Below are positions 35,755-43,930 of a stretch of DNA of 50,233 bases, piece after piece. The stretch comes from Acidimicrobiia bacterium (GTDB lineage: Bacteria > Actinomycetota > Acidimicrobiia > Spongiisociales > UBA5794), in assembly GCA_036985755.1 (NCBI GenBank), contig BTQG01000004.1, positions 1 to 50,233 of the forward strand, given 5' to 3'. Position 1 is the first letter of the stretch; each line of letters opens with the position of its first letter. Below the pieces are notes generated by a model, which saw only the letters and a list, made by a program, of their open reading frames with translations, searched no databases and was not told the DNA's origin. Both the position numbers and the translations under genes were made by a program.

Positions 35755-36957
35755 TCACACCGCAACACTCCGACTTCTTCGATCTTCCGGCACGCGGACG
35801 AGAATGAGGGCGGCGATCGCCGCCACGATCGCACCGAACATGAAGGCGGTGCCCGGCCCAAACACGACCCAGATACCGCCGAACACGAGGCTGGCGGGGA
35901 GGGCACCGACGCCGATCGCGGCGTTGTAGTAGCCAAAGGCCGAACCGCGTAGATCGGCGGGGGCGAGCCCGGCGACCCATGCCCGTTCGACGGGCTCGGT
36001 GAGGCCGAAATAGATGCCGTAGATGAGGAAGAGCGCGATCAACGCGGCCGTTTGTGTGGCGAGGGCCATGCCCAGATAGATGAGGGCGTAGAACGCCCAC
36101 CCGGCGAGTACGAGTCGTTTCCGGCCGACGGAGTCTGAGAGTCTGCCTCCAATGAGGTTGGCCCCCATTTTCACCAGACTGAACAGCGCCCACAACACCG
36201 CGATCCAGACGATGGTCACCCCCTGCTCGGACAACCGGAGCAGCAAGAAGGCGTCTGCGCTGTTGCCAAGCGTGAACACGAAAACGGCTCCGATCAGCCA
36301 CCAATAGTTCGACCCCAGTTCCCTCCACCGTCTGAATACCGGTTCCGATGGCTCATCGACATCCATGGCACGATCGGGCTCGCGAACGAATCGGGCTATG
36401 ACCAGGATCACGGCGATTGCAGGGATGACGGCGAGGAAGAAGACCTGCCGGAGGGTGAGGCCAAGCCACAACAACAGGGCGGCCGTCAGCGGACCGAGTA
36501 CGGCACCGAAGTGGTCAAGGCTCCGATGCAATCCGAAGGCTGCACCCCGGCTTTCGATGGGGGTGACGTCGGCGATCAGGGCGTCCCTTGGTGCGGTCCT
36601 GATCCCTTTCCCTACCCGATCGACGAAGCGGATCCCCACCACGAACACCCAGCTCGTGGCAAAGGCCATCAACGGTCGCACGGCTCCAGCGATACCGTAT
36701 CCGGCGAACACAAAAGGCTTCCGTCTCTTGACCCGGTCGGTCCACCATCCCGAGATGACCTTGACCAATGCCGCGGTGGACTCGGCGATGCCCTCGATAA
36801 CGCCGAGAGCGAGGGCTCCGGCGCCGAGCACTGTGGTGAGGAAGACCGGGATCAGCGGATAGATCATCTCGCTGGAGAGATCCGTCAGCATGCTCACCAG
36901 CCCCAGGGCAACCACGGTGCTGGGCACGCCCTTGCGAAGGCGATTGAACAGGCTCAT
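35755..36957 (-). CDS. MFS transporter
   Basis: DLSSEM, GWWTDRVKRRK, DRVGKGIRTAPRDALI, GRLSDSVGRK. Confidence 0.92.
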   Translation of the reverse strand: MSLFNRLRKGVPSTVVALGLVSMLTDLSSEMIYPLIPVFLTTVLGAGALALGVIEGIAESTAALVKVISGWWTDRVKRRKPFVFAGYGIAGAVRPLMAFATSWVFVVGIRFVDRVGKGIRTAPRDALIADVTPIESRGAAFGLHRSLDHFGAVLGPLTAALLLWLGLTLRQVFFLAVIPAIAVILVIARFVREPDRAMDVDEPSEPVFRRWRELGSNYWWLIGAVFVFTLGNSADAFLLLRLSEQGVTIVWIAVLWALFSLVKMGANLIGGRLSDSVGRKRLVLAGWAFYALIYLGMALATQTAALIALFLIYGIYFGLTEPVERAWVAGLAPADLRGSAFGYYNAAIGVGALPASLVFGGIWVVFGPGTAFMFGAIVAAIAALILVRVPEDRRSRSVAV

Positions 36958-37001
36958 GGACTGAAGTATCAAGTACCGAGTGCCGAGCACCAAATTCCGA
37001 G

Positions 37002-38783
37002 CTACTTGCTACTCGCCTGCCACAACCGTTGGAACTCCTGATTCGTCTTCAGCAGTTGCTCGGCGGGCCCGACGGCGTCGATCCGTCCGCCACGCATCAC
37101 GATGACCTGGTCGGCGCGTTGCAGCGCCGGCTTGCGATGGGATACCACCAGTGCTGTGGCGTCCCGCGTGCCGTGGAACAGACGATCCCACAGCATCTGT
37201 TCGGTATCGACGTCGAGCGCGCTCGACAGGTCGTCGAAGACCAGCAGCTGCGGCTCCCGCGCCAGCATCCGGGCGGCTGCCGATCGCTGTACCTGGCCTC
37301 CAGACAGGCGCACCCCGCGAGGACCGACCATGGTCTCCAGCCCGTCGGGCATCGCATCGAGATCGTCCTCCATCGTCGCCGTGTAGATCGCCCGTTCGAG
37401 GTCGTCATCGTCGGCCGGATGGCCGAGCAGCAGGTTCTGGCGCAGGGAGAGTGAAAACAGTCGCGGCACCTGTGGTGTGTACGCGGTGAGGGGCGGGACC
37501 ATGACGACGGAGGGATCCTCGACCACCCTCCCGTTCCAAGAGATCGTCCCTGTCTCTGCAGGCAGCAAGCCGAGCATGGTGCGCAGCAGGGTGGTCTTTC
37601 CCGAGCCGATGCGGCCGGTGACAACGACGAACGCCCCCCGCGGCACGTCGATGTCGATGGCATCGATCCCCATCCCCGACGACGGGTAGTGGTAGCTGAG
37701 ACCTCGCGCCGAGATGAGCGGAGCACCGTCGAGTGGCGACGGTGTTTCGTTTTGCACCGTCGCCGTTGTTGCCGGCGCCGTCAGATCGTGTCCCGCCACC
37801 AAGTCTTGCCAGGAGGCGCCGCGCATGAGCCCCACCATGCGCTCGGACGACACAGCGGCCTGTTTGAGTCGCGCCAGGTAGAGCCCGATGAAGAACGCAG
37901 CGTCGGTGATCCCCGTCAGTAGGTAGATGAACAGGCTGAACTCCCCGAGGGTCAGTCCTGCGCTGCCATCGGTGGAGATGGACCCTGCAGCCAGGATGAG
38001 GATGAGCCCGGTGCCGATGCTCACCGTATTGCGAAAGACCGCTTCCAACGCAGCCGTGAACGTCCGGTCGCGCACCATCATCTTCCTGCGCACCGCGTTG
38101 AGTTGGTTGAAGTGCTGGACCATCGTCGCCTCGGCGCCCGCGACCTTGACCGATTGAACCGATCCCAGGGTTTCGCCGAGGAAGCCGGTGATGGCCTCGG
38201 TGGAGTCGCGTGCTGCGGTCCGGTATCTGCGGATCGTGGAGCCGGTTCTCGAGCTGATGAGGATGACGACAAGGAGCGGGGCGAACACCACGGCGGTGAT
38301 CACGGGGTCGATGAAATACAACACGACGATCGAAACCGCCGCAGAGACAATGGATCCCGCCACGTCGACGGTGAAGTCCATGGCCTCGACCGTATGTTCC
38401 ACATCGTCCCGGAACCGCGACACGATCTTTCCCGGTGTCTCCTCGACGGGTCGTGCTCCAGGGAGCGAGAAGATCCACCTCAGCATGGCGGCGCGCATGC
38501 CGGCGCCGGCACGGAACAGCAGCTCGGAATGCACGCGCATCCCGCTGAACACCAAGGCGATTCTGCCTACGAGGTACGCCCATAACAGAGCGATCAGCAG
38601 CGAGATGTCCCAGCCGGTGTCGGCGGTCAGCGAGTCGAAGAAGGCCGCCGCAATGAGGCCCGCCACGATCGGCATCACCCACAGCGTTATCCAGATGACG
38701 ATGCTGACCCCGTAGCGGACGGGCTGGTTGCGGATGAGCGCCCACACGATTCTCCCGATTGGGACCCGGGCCGGTGTGGTCAT
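37002..38783 (-). CDS. ABC exporter subunit (TMD+NBD) with degenerate Walker B
   Basis: GRIGSGKTT, LSGGQ, LVFDDLSSALD (catalytic E replaced by D), SHR. Confidence 0.93.
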   Translation of the reverse strand: MTTPARVPIGRIVWALIRNQPVRYGVSIVIWITLWVMPIVAGLIAAAFFDSLTADTGWDISLLIALLWAYLVGRIALVFSGMRVHSELLFRAGAGMRAAMLRWIFSLPGARPVEETPGKIVSRFRDDVEHTVEAMDFTVDVAGSIVSAAVSIVVLYFIDPVITAVVFAPLLVVILISSRTGSTIRRYRTAARDSTEAITGFLGETLGSVQSVKVAGAEATMVQHFNQLNAVRRKMMVRDRTFTAALEAVFRNTVSIGTGLILILAAGSISTDGSAGLTLGEFSLFIYLLTGITDAAFFIGLYLARLKQAAVSSERMVGLMRGASWQDLVAGHDLTAPATTATVQNETPSPLDGAPLISARGLSYHYPSSGMGIDAIDIDVPRGAFVVVTGRIGSGKTTLLRTMLGLLPAETGTISWNGRVVEDPSVVMVPPLTAYTPQVPRLFSLSLRQNLLLGHPADDDDLERAIYTATMEDDLDAMPDGLETMVGPRGVRLSGGQVQRSAAARMLAREPQLLVFDDLSSALDVDTEQMLWDRLFHGTRDATALVVSHRKPALQRADQVIVMRGGRIDAVGPAEQLLKTNQEFQRLWQASSK

Positions 38784-40537
38784 GCCAGCACCTCCTCCAT
38801 CCCGGTCCTGAGCAGTTGGGAGAACCGCGAGCTCGGATCGGCGGCCAGGTCGATGCGCTCGCCGTACTCGACGACCCTGCCACGCTCGAGAATGAGGATG
38901 TCGTCCGCCCTAGTCACGGTCCCCAGCCGGTGGGCAATGATGATTCCGGTGCGATCCTCGAGGAGGTGGTCGACGGCGCGCTCGATCAACGCCTCTGTGG
39001 TTGGATCGAGACGCGACGATGCTTCGTCGAGCACGACGATGCCGGGGTCCTCGAGGAATATGCGGGTGAAGGCGAGGAGCTGGGCCTGCCCCGCAGACAG
39101 CCCGCCGCTGCCCGACTCGAGCACCGTGTCGAGCCCATCGGGCAGCGATGCCAGCCACTCATCCAGCTCGAGCCGGCGTATCGCCTCGACGATCTGCTCA
39201 TCGGGTACCGTGGCGTCGAAGAACGTCAGGTTGTCCCTCACCGATGCGTGGAATAGCTGAACGTCCTGGGTGACCATGCCGACCCGCCGGCGGAAGTCAT
39301 CGACCTGGGCGTCCCATGTCACGATCCCTCCCAGGCTCACCGCCCCGCTCTGTGGCTCGTAGAGCCTGGTGATGAGTCGAGCGATGGTGGACTTGCCGCT
39401 GCCGGTCCGCCCAAGCAGACCAACGATCCGGCCGGGGGCGATCTCGAAGCTGACGTCGTGGAGAACGATCTCTTGCGAGTCGCTGTTGCCGTCTGCGTAG
39501 GCGAAATCGACTCGATCGAACTCCACGCTGAGCGGTCCGTCGGGCACGGGGGTGTCGCCTTCAGGCTTGAGCTGGCTCGTGGTCGCCAATAGTTCGGAAA
39601 CGCGGTCGATGGCAGCGCTCGCCTTCTGCAGGTCCTCCAGCTCGGTGCGGATCTGGTCTATTGGGTCGCGCGTCATATCGGTGTAGTGGAAGACGAGGTA
39701 GACCGAGCCGATCGTCAGGGTTCCGATACCGAATAGCCACGCCCCCAGGGCGAAGACCAGCGTCAGGGACAGCCCGTAGAGCACGATGTTGGTGCTCCAC
39801 ATGATTCCCCAGCCCATCCAGGCGCGCACGGTTTGCGGCAACCACTTGCGGTGCAGGTCATCGAATCGCCCCCTCATATAGGGACCCGCCCCGTTTGCCG
39901 TGATGTCCTCTGTGCCCTCGACCACCTCTCCAACGAAGCCATAGGTCTCGGCCGAGGTCGCTCGGACCGCCTTCCACCATGGCACGGCGACCTGATGGAG
40001 GCCGGTCATCGCTGCCATGGCCAGCAGGGTGAACAGGGTGACACCGACTCCGACGATCCAGCTCTCGCGAGTCAGCATCACCAGGATCCCGATGATGAGG
40101 GCGCCGTTGGCGACGACCTTGATCATCATCGAAGAGAAGAAGTTGGACAGCGAGGTGACGTCACCGTCGATTCGCTCTATCAGCTCACCGGGTGATTTCC
40201 CCTTGTGGAACCCCATATCGAGACGAATGGTGTGCTCGGTGATGGCGGAGCGCAGCAGGTTGGTTGCGGTCCACCCGATGTCTTCTGCCAGAAAGGTCGA
40301 CCAGATCGCCAGCCCCTGTTGCACGATCGCGATCAGGATGAAGGAAACGGCGATGGGGATCAGCTGCGACGTGTCCGAGCCCTCGATGGCGGCGTCGATG
40401 AATTGCTTGATGAGCTGAGGGTTTACCAACTGCAGGCCGATCATGCCGGTCAGGACGACCGCAAGCAGGAACACCCTGGCGCGTTGGGGCCGCAGGTAGT
40501 CGGTCAGCAGTCTGAAATAGGAGCTTACGGGGATCAT
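38780..40537 (-). CDS. ABC exporter subunit (TMD+NBD) with degenerate signature motif
   Basis: GRTGSGKST, LSAGQ, VLDEASSRLD, AHR; ATGA overlap with the partner gene. Confidence 0.93.
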   Translation of the reverse strand: MIPVSSYFRLLTDYLRPQRARVFLLAVVLTGMIGLQLVNPQLIKQFIDAAIEGSDTSQLIPIAVSFILIAIVQQGLAIWSTFLAEDIGWTATNLLRSAITEHTIRLDMGFHKGKSPGELIERIDGDVTSLSNFFSSMMIKVVANGALIIGILVMLTRESWIVGVGVTLFTLLAMAAMTGLHQVAVPWWKAVRATSAETYGFVGEVVEGTEDITANGAGPYMRGRFDDLHRKWLPQTVRAWMGWGIMWSTNIVLYGLSLTLVFALGAWLFGIGTLTIGSVYLVFHYTDMTRDPIDQIRTELEDLQKASAAIDRVSELLATTSQLKPEGDTPVPDGPLSVEFDRVDFAYADGNSDSQEIVLHDVSFEIAPGRIVGLLGRTGSGKSTIARLITRLYEPQSGAVSLGGIVTWDAQVDDFRRRVGMVTQDVQLFHASVRDNLTFFDATVPDEQIVEAIRRLELDEWLASLPDGLDTVLESGSGGLSAGQAQLLAFTRIFLEDPGIVVLDEASSRLDPTTEALIERAVDHLLEDRTGIIIAHRLGTVTRADDILILERGRVVEYGERIDLAADPSSRFSQLLRTGMEEVLA

Positions 40538-40578
40538 TTCTCGGTCCTGATAGGTCGAAGGGCGGGTGTCGCGGCCAT

Positions 40579-40606
40579 GAAAGAAGCCGCCAGGATGGCG
40601 GCTTTC
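40579..40606 (-). terminator. Attenuator terminator in the ABC operon 5' leader
   Basis: Minus strand AAGCCGCCA-tcc-TGGCGGCTT followed by CTTTC, about 40 nt upstream of the ABC start. Confidence 0.7.
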
Positions 40607-40627
40607 TCGCTTGGACGCTGTTCCGGG

Positions 40628-40693
40628 TCAGGACCGGAAACGGGCGCGGGCGAGGGCCGCCGGGTATGTGCTGGGCGTTGCAGTCATCAACAC
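40628..40693 (-). CDS. Putative leader peptide MLMTATPSTYPAALARARFRS
   Basis: GAGGAGG SD 9 nt upstream of GTG (in-frame TTG and ATG follow); TGA sits in a hairpin loop; overlaps the antiterminator arm. Confidence 0.65.
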   Translation of the reverse strand: MLMTATPSTYPAALARARFRS

Positions 40694-40746
40694 TGCGCTG
40701 TGCCTCCTCGCTCCGGATGCGGCCCCAAGGCCGCTTTGCCGGAGGT

Positions 40747-40775
40747 ACTCTCGCGGATTACCCGGGAAGTGTCAA
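40747..40775 (-). promoter_or_regulatory. Sigma70-type promoter TTGACA-N17-GAGAGT
   Basis: Perfect -35 at 40775-40770, 17-nt spacer, -10 with conserved A2 and T6 at 40752-40747. Confidence 0.6.
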
Positions 40776-41064: not shown

Positions 41065-41904
41065 TCACAACACCCTCACTACCAGAAGGGCTGCCAGCAG
41101 GGCGAACGAGTTCGTCGCAATATGCACCAATATCGGGGCAACGGTGCTGTTTGCCCGCAGGCGCAACCACAAGAAGCCGACTCCGACGATGGCGGTTCCG
41201 GCGACGGCGACGACGGCGGCGATGGCGGCCCCGATGAGACCGTTGAAGGCATCGCCGGCGGGGTTGGTGTCCAGGGTGTCGATCGTCGGGAGAATGTGCC
41301 AAAGGCCGAACAGGGCGGACGAGGCCAGCGCCGCCCACAGAGGAGCCCATTTGCGGGCGAACATGCCGAAGAGCACTCCGCGAAAAAGCATCTCCTCGTA
41401 GAAGGCGGTGGCGATCGGGATGCGAAGGAGTGCGTTGAACAGCACCAGCGCTGTCGACGAATCGACCACGCGATCGTCGTAGAAGAATTCCCGGGTGGCC
41501 GGGATGGTCACACCGATGGCGATCCCGGCCGCAATCACGGCCATGACGATCCCTCCGACGAAGAATCCCCTGCCGAGGCGCTTGCGCCACAGTCCCATGT
41601 CGACCCAGGTGACCCCGGCGTGCCTGGCGATGGCGACCGCCACTCCGAGGATGGCCAGGTTGAACGGGATGTTCCACAACGAGTCGAGGACCCGGTTGGC
41701 GACCACGTTGGCGTAACCGGTGAGGGCAACGATGCCGACGATGTGCCAGGGGTGGATGACCTGAGGGTTCGGCGGGCGACACAGCCACATCGACGGGTGC
41801 CACATCCGGTCCCATTGAGCCAGGGTCCACGAGTTTCTGGGATCCTTCGGTACCACGGGTGAGGGCTGGCCTGCGGGCACACTTGGAGGGGATTCGTCCG
41901 TCAT
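41065..41904 (-). CDS. CPBP family intramembrane glutamic endopeptidase
   Basis: EEMLFRG, FGLWH and HIATN motifs; multiple TMs. Confidence 0.92.
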   Translation of the reverse strand: MTDESPPSVPAGQPSPVVPKDPRNSWTLAQWDRMWHPSMWLCRPPNPQVIHPWHIVGIVALTGYANVVANRVLDSLWNIPFNLAILGVAVAIARHAGVTWVDMGLWRKRLGRGFFVGGIVMAVIAAGIAIGVTIPATREFFYDDRVVDSSTALVLFNALLRIPIATAFYEEMLFRGVLFGMFARKWAPLWAALASSALFGLWHILPTIDTLDTNPAGDAFNGLIGAAIAAVVAVAGTAIVGVGFLWLRLRANSTVAPILVHIATNSFALLAALLVVRVL

Positions 41905-42550: not shown

Positions 42551-43930
42551 TCAGACTGGTTCGAACCTGGCGGTGAAGTGACGCAGCCATGGCGCCTGTT
42601 CGACGATGCGATACCCGCCGATCGACTCCGCCCGGGAAGCAACGTCGATGACAACCTCCGCTACGTAGTCGATGTGGCTCTGGGTGTAGGTGCGCCGCGG
42701 GATCGCCAGCCGGACCAGCTCCATGGCGGCGGGTGTGTCCGGCCCACCGTCCTCGGCGCGCCGGCCGAACATCACAGAACCGATCTCGATCCCGCGAACT
42801 CCTCCGTCGCGATAGAGCGCTACGGCGAGGGCCTGCGCCGGGTACTCGTGCGGTGGCACATGCGCCAGCAGTGCCTTGGCGTCCAGGTACACCGCGTGCC
42901 CCCCGGCCGGCTGAACGATCGGCACACCGGCATCGGCGACCTTTTCGGCGAGGTACTCGGTGGATCGGATGCGGTAGCGCAGGTAGTCCTCGTCGAGGAC
43001 TTCCTTGAGACCCTGGGCCAATGCCTCCAGGTCGTATCCGGCGAGCCCACCGTAGGTCGGGAAACCCTCGGTCAGGATGAGCAGATTCCGAGCCCGCATG
43101 GCGACGTCGGGGTCGTTCATCGCCAGAAAGCCGCCGATGTTGACCAGGCCGTCCTTCTTGGCCGAGACCGTGCAGCCGTCGGCGATCGAGAACATCTCCT
43201 GTGCGATCTCCTTGGGGGACCGATCGGCGTAACCGTCCTCGCGGGTCTTGATGAACCAGGCGTTCTCGGCGAACCGGCAAGCGTCGAGGTAGAGCGGGAT
43301 GCCGAATTCGTCACACACCTCCCTGACCGCACGCAAATTCGCCATCGACACCGGCTGTCCACCTCCGGAGTTGTTGGTGACGGTCATCATCACCAGCGGG
43401 ACCCGCTCAGTACCCACCGATTCGATCGTTCGGCGAAGGGCGGCGACGTCCATATTTCCCTTGAACGGGAGGATGGCGGAGGGGTCGAGACCCTCGGGGG
43501 TGACGAGATCGCGGGCCTCGGCGCCCTGGTACTCGACATTCGCCCTCGTCGTGTCGAAGTGGGTGTTGTTGGGTACGACGTCACCCTCTTCGACGAGCAC
43601 CGAGAACAGGATCTTCTCGGCGGCGCGACCCTGATGGGTGGGGATGATTTCGGCGAACCCCGTCAGGTCCATGACCGCACTCTGGAATCGGAAGAACGAC
43701 CGGCTCCCCGCGTACGACTCGTCTCCCTGCATCATGCCCGCCCACTGCTGCGATGACATGGCGCCGGTGCCCGAATCGGTCAGCAGATCGATGATCACCT
43801 CTTCGGCTCGCAAACCGAACAGGTTGTAACCGGCGCGCTGCAGCGCCGCCTCCCGCTCGGCGACCGTTGACAGATCGATGGCCTGGACCGTGTGGATGCG
43901 GAACGGCTCGATGATGGTCTCGTAGGGCAT
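42551..43930 (-). CDS. tnaA: Tryptophanase (beta-eliminating lyase)
   Basis: IDLLTDSGT, HQGRAAE, PLP-lysine SAKKDG; FDTT, EIGS and LRHFTA are tryptophanase-type rather than tyrosine phenol-lyase-type (FTTT, ERG, LRFFTA). Confidence 0.85.
   Translation of the reverse strand: MPYETIIEPFRIHTVQAIDLSTVAEREAALQRAGYNLFGLRAEEVIIDLLTDSGTGAMSSQQWAGMMQGDESYAGSRSFFRFQSAVMDLTGFAEIIPTHQGRAAEKILFSVLVEEGDVVPNNTHFDTTRANVEYQGAEARDLVTPEGLDPSAILPFKGNMDVAALRRTIESVGTERVPLVMMTVTNNSGGGQPVSMANLRAVREVCDEFGIPLYLDACRFAENAWFIKTREDGYADRSPKEIAQEMFSIADGCTVSAKKDGLVNIGGFLAMNDPDVAMRARNLLILTEGFPTYGGLAGYDLEALAQGLKEVLDEDYLRYRIRSTEYLAEKVADAGVPIVQPAGGHAVYLDAKALLAHVPPHEYPAQALAVALYRDGGVRGIEIGSVMFGRRAEDGGPDTPAAMELVRLAIPRRTYTQSHIDYVAEVVIDVASRAESIGGYRIVEQAPWLRHFTARFEPV

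Follow-up and report, generated by a model that had tools for sequence, protein, structure and literature searches.

The exporter genes and their leader

We analysed a 50,233-nt stretch of DNA from an Acidimicrobiia bacterium (contig BTQG01000004.1, assembly GCA_036985755.1), referred to below as the window, and describe here two genes for an ATP-binding cassette (ABC) exporter together with the candidate attenuator in their leader. The leader and both exporter genes lie on the minus strand, and all coordinates are positions in the window. The first gene, ABC1 (38780–40537), is an open reading frame of 585 codons that starts with ATG at 40537; the second, ABC2 (37002–38783), was found directly after ABC1 in 24 of 24 orthologous loci checked. 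Each gene encodes an ABC_membrane and an ABC_tran domain. ABC1 has the Walker B residues LDE and the signature LSAGQ, while ABC2 has FDD after Walker B and the signature LSGGQ, and one of the ATP sites is degenerate. The nearest solved half-transporters are TmrA, TM288, Sav1866 and EfrCD for ABC1 and YheI for ABC2. By these sequence features the pair belongs with the heterodimeric type IV ABC exporters with one degenerate ATP site, a class to which we take TmrAB, TM287/288, BmrCD and EfrCD to belong, and the designation as a heterodimeric exporter in the initial annotation, a model's reading of the same letters, is borne out by the two adjacent half-transporter genes.

The leader was read from 5' to 3' as follows. 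A putative promoter (40747–40775) consists of the −35 hexamer TTGACA (40775–40770), a 17-nt spacer and the −10 hexamer GAGAGT (40752–40747), which matches TATAAT at three of six positions. It is followed by a 5'-proximal hairpin, GCGGCC-UUGG-GGCCGC (40719–40734), which was read from the sequence and is also part of the minimum free energy (MFE) structure. The ribosome-binding region of a short upstream open reading frame (uORF) spans 40703–40714 (GGAGCGAGGAGG). It contains the Shine-Dalgarno (SD) sequence GAGGAGG (40709–40703), 9 nt upstream of the start codon, and also the motif GCGAGG (40711–40706), termed segment 1. The uORF itself (40628–40693) begins with GTG at 40693, continues with 20 sense codons and ends with TGA at 40630–40628; its peptide is MLMTATPSTYPAALARARFRS. 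Codons 11–15 comprise segment A, or segment 2 (GGCGGC-c-CUCGC, 40650–40661), the 5' strand of the antiterminator. An apical hairpin formed by UUCCGG and CCGGAA (40621–40639) carries the uORF stop codon in its loop. Segment B, or segment 3 (GCGAG-aaa-GCCGCC, 40597–40610), is common to the antiterminator and to the 5' arm of a predicted intrinsic terminator (40579–40604). The terminator begins 24 nt past the uORF stop; its 9-bp, GC-rich stem AAGCCGCCA/TGGCGGCTT (40604–40584; as RNA AAGCCGCCA-UCC-UGGCGGCUU) is followed by CUUUC. The ABC1 ribosome-binding site (40535–40550) with AGGA at 40548–40545 and AUG at 40537–40535 closes the leader and can form 15 base pairs with the end of the uORF (40642–40628). 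Promoter, 5' hairpin, SD sequence, 21-codon uORF, terminator and ABC start had all been named in the initial annotation, and each was read where it had placed them.

Three pairings had been proposed to build an antiterminator, and all are complementary as written: 40661–40656 with 40602–40597, 40654–40650 with 40610–40606, and 40639–40634 with 40626–40621. The 5' arm of this long hairpin consists wholly of uORF codons 11–21 and the rest of about 30 nt past the stop, so the earlier description of the 3' half of the uORF as one side of a long stem with the stop codon in its loop is accurate. Because the base of the antiterminator uses the 5' arm of the terminator, the two structures are mutually exclusive. 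Constrained folding of the window's leader gave both conformers, with −64.2 kcal/mol for the forced antiterminator and −68.4 kcal/mol for the terminator, which is thus better by 4.2 kcal/mol. The duplex of segments A and B alone amounts to −21.2 kcal/mol. The leader has three sequence features of ribosome-mediated (leader-peptide) transcription attenuators, namely a uORF with an SD sequence, a predicted terminator before the structural gene and an excluding antiterminator that overlaps the uORF.

Some further observations concern the same stretch. The octamer AUGGCCGC at 40571–40578 directly adjoins the downstream end of the terminator tail and recurs in most members of the window's own subgroup (A1, defined below); GGCCGC within it is the exact complement of GCGGCC in segment A (40660–40655). 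A mini-ORF of 14 codons at 40578–40534, which overlaps the ABC start as ATGA, was rejected as a gene: it is unconserved, one relative (L004) has no ATG there and another (L006) has it in another frame. A trp-like role of the segment after the stop was rejected by eye, unscored, as no complementarity was seen between 40627–40606 and either arm of the terminator.

Conservation in orthologous leaders

An ABC1 orthologue was found at E ≤ 1e-190 in 133 of 301 genomes sampled from the order and, with the window's own genome counted, at E ≤ 1e-140 in 12 of 301 genomes that represent the phylum. Of those 12, seven belong to two families outside the order (6/10 and 1/12), and no orthologue was found at this threshold in 56 of the 62 families sampled outside the order. 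From the DNA upstream of the best ABC1 orthologues we assembled a set of 76 distinct leaders, leaving out duplicates, leaders shorter than 150 nt and the loci L026–L031 and L040–L044 (≤47% identity or partial matches). A uORF was called if it had 7–30 codons, a 5-mer SD sequence and an end 40–240 nt before the ABC start. On these terms an SD-preceded uORF is present in 57 of the 76 leaders, and in three more the SD match is only a 4-mer; the uORF of L024 sits farther upstream and was missed by the criteria for this reason.

In a close family of 34 distinct leaders the uORFs have the C-terminal core A-[LF]-A-R-A-R in common. The family falls into two subgroups. Subgroup A1, that of the window, comprises 16 leaders from the window's genus and one other, with uORFs of 21 codons that end in ARFR[FSL]; the sister subgroup A2 comprises 18 leaders from several genera (L010, L012, L058–L074), with uORFs of 20 codons that mostly end in AR[LMF]R. 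The uORF frame is open in all 34 leaders, the start codon lies exactly 14 codons ahead of the conserved Ala15 codon in 33 of them, and the stop is located 75–102 nt upstream of the ABC start. The expectation that the uORF would be conserved in orthologous leaders is thus supported both by its frequency in the whole set and by the fixed distance from start to core in the close family.

The flanking elements recur as well. All 34 related leaders have TTGAC 60–85 nt 5' of the start of the uORF and, 17–18 nt downstream of TTGAC, a hexamer of the form nAnnnT. Within A1 the distance to the uORF start is only 60–62 nt in L004 and L005, two leaders from the window's genus, versus 81–85 nt in the other 14. 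A hairpin is kept at the 5'-proximal place in relatives with altered stems (GCGACC/GGUCGU, GCGGUC/GACCGU, GUGACC/GGUCAC, GUGGUUC/GAACCAU), and it is absent from L004 and L005. Our guess is that it serves as a stabiliser of the 5' end.

A laxer scan located a terminator hairpin with a T-rich tail in all 16 A1 leaders, most of them with UUUUU, and two of the eight terminator pairs show compensatory changes within A1. At the same place the distant leaders L018 and L205 have unrelated terminators. The A:B duplex has −17 to −24 kcal/mol and 11–12 bp in 14 of the 16 A1 leaders; in L005 it has −13.1 kcal/mol, and the value for L039 is void owing to a mis-set anchor. When the two strands were swapped between A1 leaders, the energy did not differ (−19.75 kcal/mol for own and for swapped partners), both strands being invariant.

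In A2 a homologous antiterminator helix pairs GNGG-C-UCUCG with CGAGA-C-CCNC. Its positions are paired to 75.5% versus 37–46% for slid partners, a level reached by none of 500 shuffles, and its covariation score of 0.109 versus 0.083 was reached by 7 of 500 shuffles. The arms of the apical hairpin, too, change together in A2 (GCGG/CCGC, GCAG/CUGC, GCUG/CAGC, AAACGG/CCGUUU), with a modest difference in the swap test (own −6.7 versus swapped −5.7 kcal/mol). Covariation in both stems, as anticipated earlier, was accordingly seen for two pairs of the A1 terminator and only to a modest degree for the A2 antiterminator, and the antiterminator of A1 does not vary. RNAalifold yielded no consensus for A2 alone, for the pooled region from start to segment A or for the 5' hairpin region. 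Since the MAFFT alignments set the helices in different registers, we used named structures and per-sequence folds instead.

The A2 leaders differ at their 3' end. Of the 17 leaders scored, most allow segment B to pair with a GUCUCG-like segment (segment C) 23–39 nt upstream of the ABC start (one lies at −48), and the resulting helix encloses a hairpin; own partners give −7.5 and swapped partners −6.6 kcal/mol. A2 leaders also have a C-rich tract after the uORF stop and a variable central hairpin, often with GGUGAC. The output in A2 may be translational or Rho-dependent. Sister genera that keep the uORF and the competing pairings and swap the canonical terminator for another arrangement offer a natural series on how the output of an attenuator changes.

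Farther from the window, the orthologues L208–L211, L205, L034 and L038 carry other conserved uORF families, MT.RSG.APVS.., MKTRRPIAAPVFGARPRAVV and M.TPMSRRR.LAPI.GD.LVA. Judging from their sequences, a leader with a uORF may be ancestral to this group of exporters. A pattern scan of metagenomes with the conserved core gave three true leaders (L123, L155, which is cut, and L163) among 80 loci listed; the remaining loci among the matches listed are chance matches in GC-rich coding DNA. As for codon use, the window's uORF has four codons among its first nine (40666–40692, codons 2–9) that are rare in the genome (TTG 0.09, ACT 0.06, GCA 0.11 and ACA 0.07 of synonyms), and the means across the family are not clearly low.

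Ribosome position and the proposed switch

To relate these structures to translation, the ribosome was modelled as a 30-nt mask on the leader folds. Without a ribosome the terminator is favoured in 15 of the 16 A1 leaders. In transcripts that end before the 3' arm of the terminator, the A:B pairing is the MFE structure in 14 of 16 A1 leaders, and in 16 of 16 if the start region is masked. A mask whose P site lies anywhere from codon 4 to codon 21 abolishes all 11 antiterminator pairs in the window, and with the P site at codons 13, 17, 19 or 21 the terminator is intact at the same time. In these models read-through is possible only if no ribosome is present or if the ribosome is kept from moving beyond about the seventh codon. 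A mask on the SD sequence and start codon shifts the antiterminator-minus-terminator gap from a mean of about +3.7 kcal/mol to ≤0 in 9 of the 16 A1 leaders.

The SD region of the uORF is itself involved in pairing. GCGAGG (40711–40706), which overlaps the SD sequence, pairs with CCUCGC (40655–40650) in the MFE structure of the window, and for most of the 34 relatives the MFE structure computed for the 5' part has the SD region paired with segment A. For A2 a helix set that joins the SD sequence and start codon to codons 10–15 is 80.1% paired versus 31–46% for slid controls. Because this region also pairs with the antiterminator strand, the models suggest that a four-segment switch, which needs a ribosome held on or close to the start, is no less likely than a three-segment switch of the whiB7 kind. 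The two versions predict opposite phenotypes for start-codon mutants. The direction proposed in the initial annotation, with impaired uORF translation leading to read-through, fits the geometry, as the 5' arm of the antiterminator is made of uORF codons 11–21; its three-segment form does not account for the additional pairing of the SD region.

Based on these results we think that the ABC1-ABC2 exporter operon is probably controlled by its leader through ribosome-dependent (leader-peptide) transcription attenuation. A ribosome in an unstressed cell would traverse the uORF and, during synthesis of the terminator by RNA polymerase, melt or cover the antiterminator strand, and transcription would end near 40579. 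Were the leading ribosome to be detained at the start or no farther than about codon seven, the antiterminator strand would be left free to pair with segment B, and this pairing would allow the polymerase to read into the exporter genes. The hold could be caused by a translation inhibitor or by another translation stress; an antibiotic as the signal is something we purely infer. The order of structures that we favour is anti-antiterminator, antiterminator and terminator, in which case induction would require, as in vmlR and bmrB, that a ribosome be bound but stalled.

In the window's genus a second lock may act on translation of ABC1. In the MFE structure of the whole leader the last 15 nt of the uORF (40642–40628) pair with the SD sequence and AUG of ABC1 (40550–40535). 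This duplex has −23.9 kcal/mol, which was reached by none of 200 shuffles, and it is strong only in the four leaders of the window's genus, L002–L005; it is marginal in two others and absent in 28. In the terminator conformer both the SD sequence and the AUG of ABC1 have a probability of about 0 of being unpaired; the antiterminator conformer raises this probability to 0.40–0.95 for the AUG and 0.05–0.57 for the SD sequence. The terminator conformer would thus leave the uORF end to hide the ribosome-binding site, and the antiterminator conformer would tie up these 15 nt and largely free the AUG. While the initial annotation listed the elements of the leader correctly, it had missed this 15-bp pairing.

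Several points weigh against a transcription attenuator. The window's promoter and terminator both escape a generic consensus scan, and the leader fold has a z-score of −3.2, with one of 200 shuffles folding equally well; for these reasons the window alone would be only suggestive, and it is the comparison with relatives that makes the elements more than chance. The U-tract of the window is weak (CUUUC, four U in the tail). No uORF was found by the criteria used in 16 of the 76 orthologous leaders, and in 32 of the 34 close leaders frame +2 of the uORF span is open as well, which makes openness a weak coding argument. Both antiterminator strands are invariant in A1, hence no covariation is possible there, and covariation in A2 is modest, as pairs changed on both sides were matched by 107 of 500 shuffles. 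The same applies to the A2 anti-antiterminator: its covariation is weak (matched by 40 of 500 shuffles), and because a single member supplied its structure, the comparison with slid controls is biased in its favour. In the window the terminator remains favoured by 2.8–3.5 kcal/mol even if the start region is masked, so induction would have to be kinetic, and this mask gives only 5 of the 11 antiterminator pairs at equilibrium. A canonical terminator is found in none of the 18 A2 leaders, where the output must differ. Finally, a search of sequencing runs found no RNA run covering the stretch (the one run listed contained 0.04 of its words), a result that says nothing on expression.

The uORF end could also act through its peptide. 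According to this alternative, the conserved Pro7-Asn8 together with ALARAR[FLM]R would form a drug- or ligand-dependent arrest peptide, like ErmDL or TnaC, that halts the ribosome at the last codons or the stop and exposes the ABC1 ribosome-binding site, or masks the C-rich tract after the stop in A2. The ALARAR core is kept at an exact distance of 12 codons from the start in 33 of the 34 leaders, a conserved hairpin carries the stop codon in its loop, and Pro7 is kept as a residue while the third base of its codon varies (CCC/CCG/CCA). RAR and R[FLM]R fit the R/K-x-R/K pattern, which is linked to macrolide arrest; the window's uORF contains RAR and RFR, and ARAR is kept in most of the 34 leaders. 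A ribosome on codons 17–21 would cover 40642–40628 and free the SD sequence and AUG of ABC1. However, the third positions of the core codons are almost invariant, including the rare CGU (fraction 0.13–0.14 of Arg codons), which points to a constraint at the RNA level. The last one or two residues vary in A2 (LR, KR, LQ, MR, TL, ML, SL, NS) with the pairing kept, and CC of the Pro7 codon and GG of the Arg3 codon sit in a small conserved GGC:GCC stem. Leaders of orthologues with 47–57% identity keep GCCC(C)CGUUUCGG in another reading frame (..APVS..). Moreover, a late arrest cannot relieve termination, because a ribosome with its P site at codons 13–21 leaves none of the 11 antiterminator pairs. 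A stall at the motif would therefore free an activating structure only in the form of the genus-specific pairing with the ribosome-binding site, strong in L002–L005 alone. The sequences argue that conservation of the core is at least largely at the RNA level, and we regard an arrest peptide as unlikely. The earlier reading of RARFR as a macrolide-arrest motif was not upheld, given the near-invariant third positions, the variable C-terminal residues and the fact that a late stall covers the antiterminator strand.

An arrest at the end of the uORF might instead be combined with attenuation in a two-input device, in which an early stall opens transcription and a late stall, dependent on a ligand such as a drug or a substrate of the pump, unmasks the ribosome-binding site via the 15-bp helix. 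A new sensory arrest peptide would then be marked by its invariant core, by Pro7-Asn8, by the spacer of always 12 codons and by a stop codon placed in the hairpin loop; to this version we assign a rather low probability.

Purely translational control would dispense with termination: the hairpin at 40604–40584 would be an ineffective terminator, and translation of the uORF would open the long-range helix that hides the ABC1 ribosome-binding site. The energy of this helix in the whole-leader fold, the weak U-tract of the window and the A2 leaders without a canonical terminator, in which the B:C helix adjoins the ribosome-binding site, are in line with it. The restriction of a strong helix to L002–L005 (marginal in 2 of the other 30 leaders, absent in 28) speaks against it, as does the retention in all 16 A1 leaders of a terminator with UUUUU tails and a competing antiterminator; the swap test gives the A2 B:C helix modest support as well. 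We consider this alternative improbable.

With five Ala and three Arg among its 21 codons, the uORF could be read as a sensor of Ala or Arg starvation like the Ala-rich uORF of whiB7, with an uncharged tRNA stalling the ribosome and inducing the operon; whiB7 uORFs have 25–40% Ala and their composition sets what is sensed (PMC10274678). However, every Arg codon and all but one of the five Ala codons fall within codons 12–20, where a stall favours termination, and the exporter has no evident link to the supply of either amino acid, which makes such a sensor very unlikely. That there is no switch at all, only a constitutive leader with stabilising structure or a small ORF whose peptide acts elsewhere, would agree with the silence of generic scans and with the many chance pairings in GC-rich leaders, yet is scarcely credible in view of the exclusive pairings, fixed spacings and terminator kept across genera, of C-terminal residues that are not conserved as such, and of a leader that occurs once in the window's genome and always before this exporter.

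For the attenuator that we favour, the genomic neighbourhood provides some context. Upstream lies a gene for a CPBP-family intramembrane protease (41065–41904, minus strand; weak NCBIfam match), which is followed by a terminator-like hairpin of its own (40934–40921, minus strand) with the tail GGAGTTTTGT; the leader is on this account taken as a separate transcription unit. Downstream an ORF for a major facilitator superfamily (MFS) transporter (35755–36993, minus strand) begins 8 nt after the ABC2 stop and may be part of the ABC1-ABC2 operon. A gene of the tryptophanase/tyrosine phenol-lyase family lies at 42551–43930 on the minus strand (NCBIfam PRK13238, E = 5e-210). The source genome is a 2.5-Mb assembly of 88% completeness, in which the leader is single-copy.

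The leader had been thought to be undescribed, and this agrees with our searches. Rfam gave no match apart from two chance hits of miRNA models on the other strand (E = 0.16 and 0.85), NCBIfam gave none for the leader, and literature searches turned up neither a paper about the leader or the lineage nor reporter or Term-seq data for the lineage. By sequence comparison, then, this is a real, conserved and previously undescribed leader, and probably a leader-peptide attenuator of a known kind. It provides a candidate regulatory element, defined by its sequence, for the exporter of a large group of actinobacteria that are mostly uncultured. Should the switch respond to translation inhibitors, the pump would be part of an intrinsic response to ribosome-targeting compounds in soil and sediment.

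Comparison with known systems

Attenuation by leader peptides is a textbook principle. Like the peptide of the present uORF, arrest peptides of the Erm and TnaC types are short leader peptides, with an R-x-R pattern and a stop codon beside a regulatory RNA element. The present uORF differs from them in that selection at the peptide level is not evident and in that the stall site they would need is incompatible with antitermination here.

The vmlR leader of Bacillus subtilis (Takada et al. 2022, PMC9226507) is among the closest known systems. There a ribosome stalled at initiation blocks the anti-antiterminator and turns both regulatory layers on. It shares with the leader described here a uORF that has its own SD sequence, an anti-antiterminator of which the uORF's start region is a part, an antiterminator with an intrinsic terminator, and an extra hairpin that hides the downstream SD sequence. 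From the modelled folds and this analogy we infer a vmlR-like logic for the window's leader. The two are unrelated in sequence; the vmlR uORF has 3 codons versus 21 here, and in the present leader the 3' half of the uORF is itself the antiterminator strand. The gene downstream of vmlR's leader encodes an ABCF ribosome-protection factor instead of a membrane exporter. For vmlR, NusG-dependent pausing and an input of (p)ppGpp were shown as well (PMC9226507).

With bmrB-bmrCD of Bacillus subtilis (Reilman et al. 2014, PMC4191407) the likeness extends to the regulated genes. There, ribosome-targeting drugs induce only if the leader is translated, and the attenuator, with three alternative stem-loops, precedes a heterodimeric ABC exporter with one degenerate site; among solved chains, our ABC2 matches YheI (BmrC). 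BmrB has, in that account, 53 codons and a terminator inside the coding region, as opposed to 21 codons and a terminator past the stop here, and we saw no counterpart to the promoter control by AbrB described there. The leader would therefore work like bmrB without being a member of the bmrB leader family; the two were set apart by these features rather than by a direct comparison of the leader sequences.

The whiB7/wblC leaders come from the same phylum and likewise have an alanine-rich uORF. As reported for whiB7 (PMC10274678), translation of the uORF favours a Rho-independent terminator and impaired translation favours an antiterminator, which is the direction proposed for the exporter leader. 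There are three differences. The gene downstream of the whiB7 leader encodes a transcription factor and not an exporter. The whiB7 uORFs vary in length and sequence, whereas the uORF described here is fixed in length and spacing. And loss of the whiB7 uORF start raises expression, whereas the four-segment reading of the exporter leader predicts expression that is low and uninducible.

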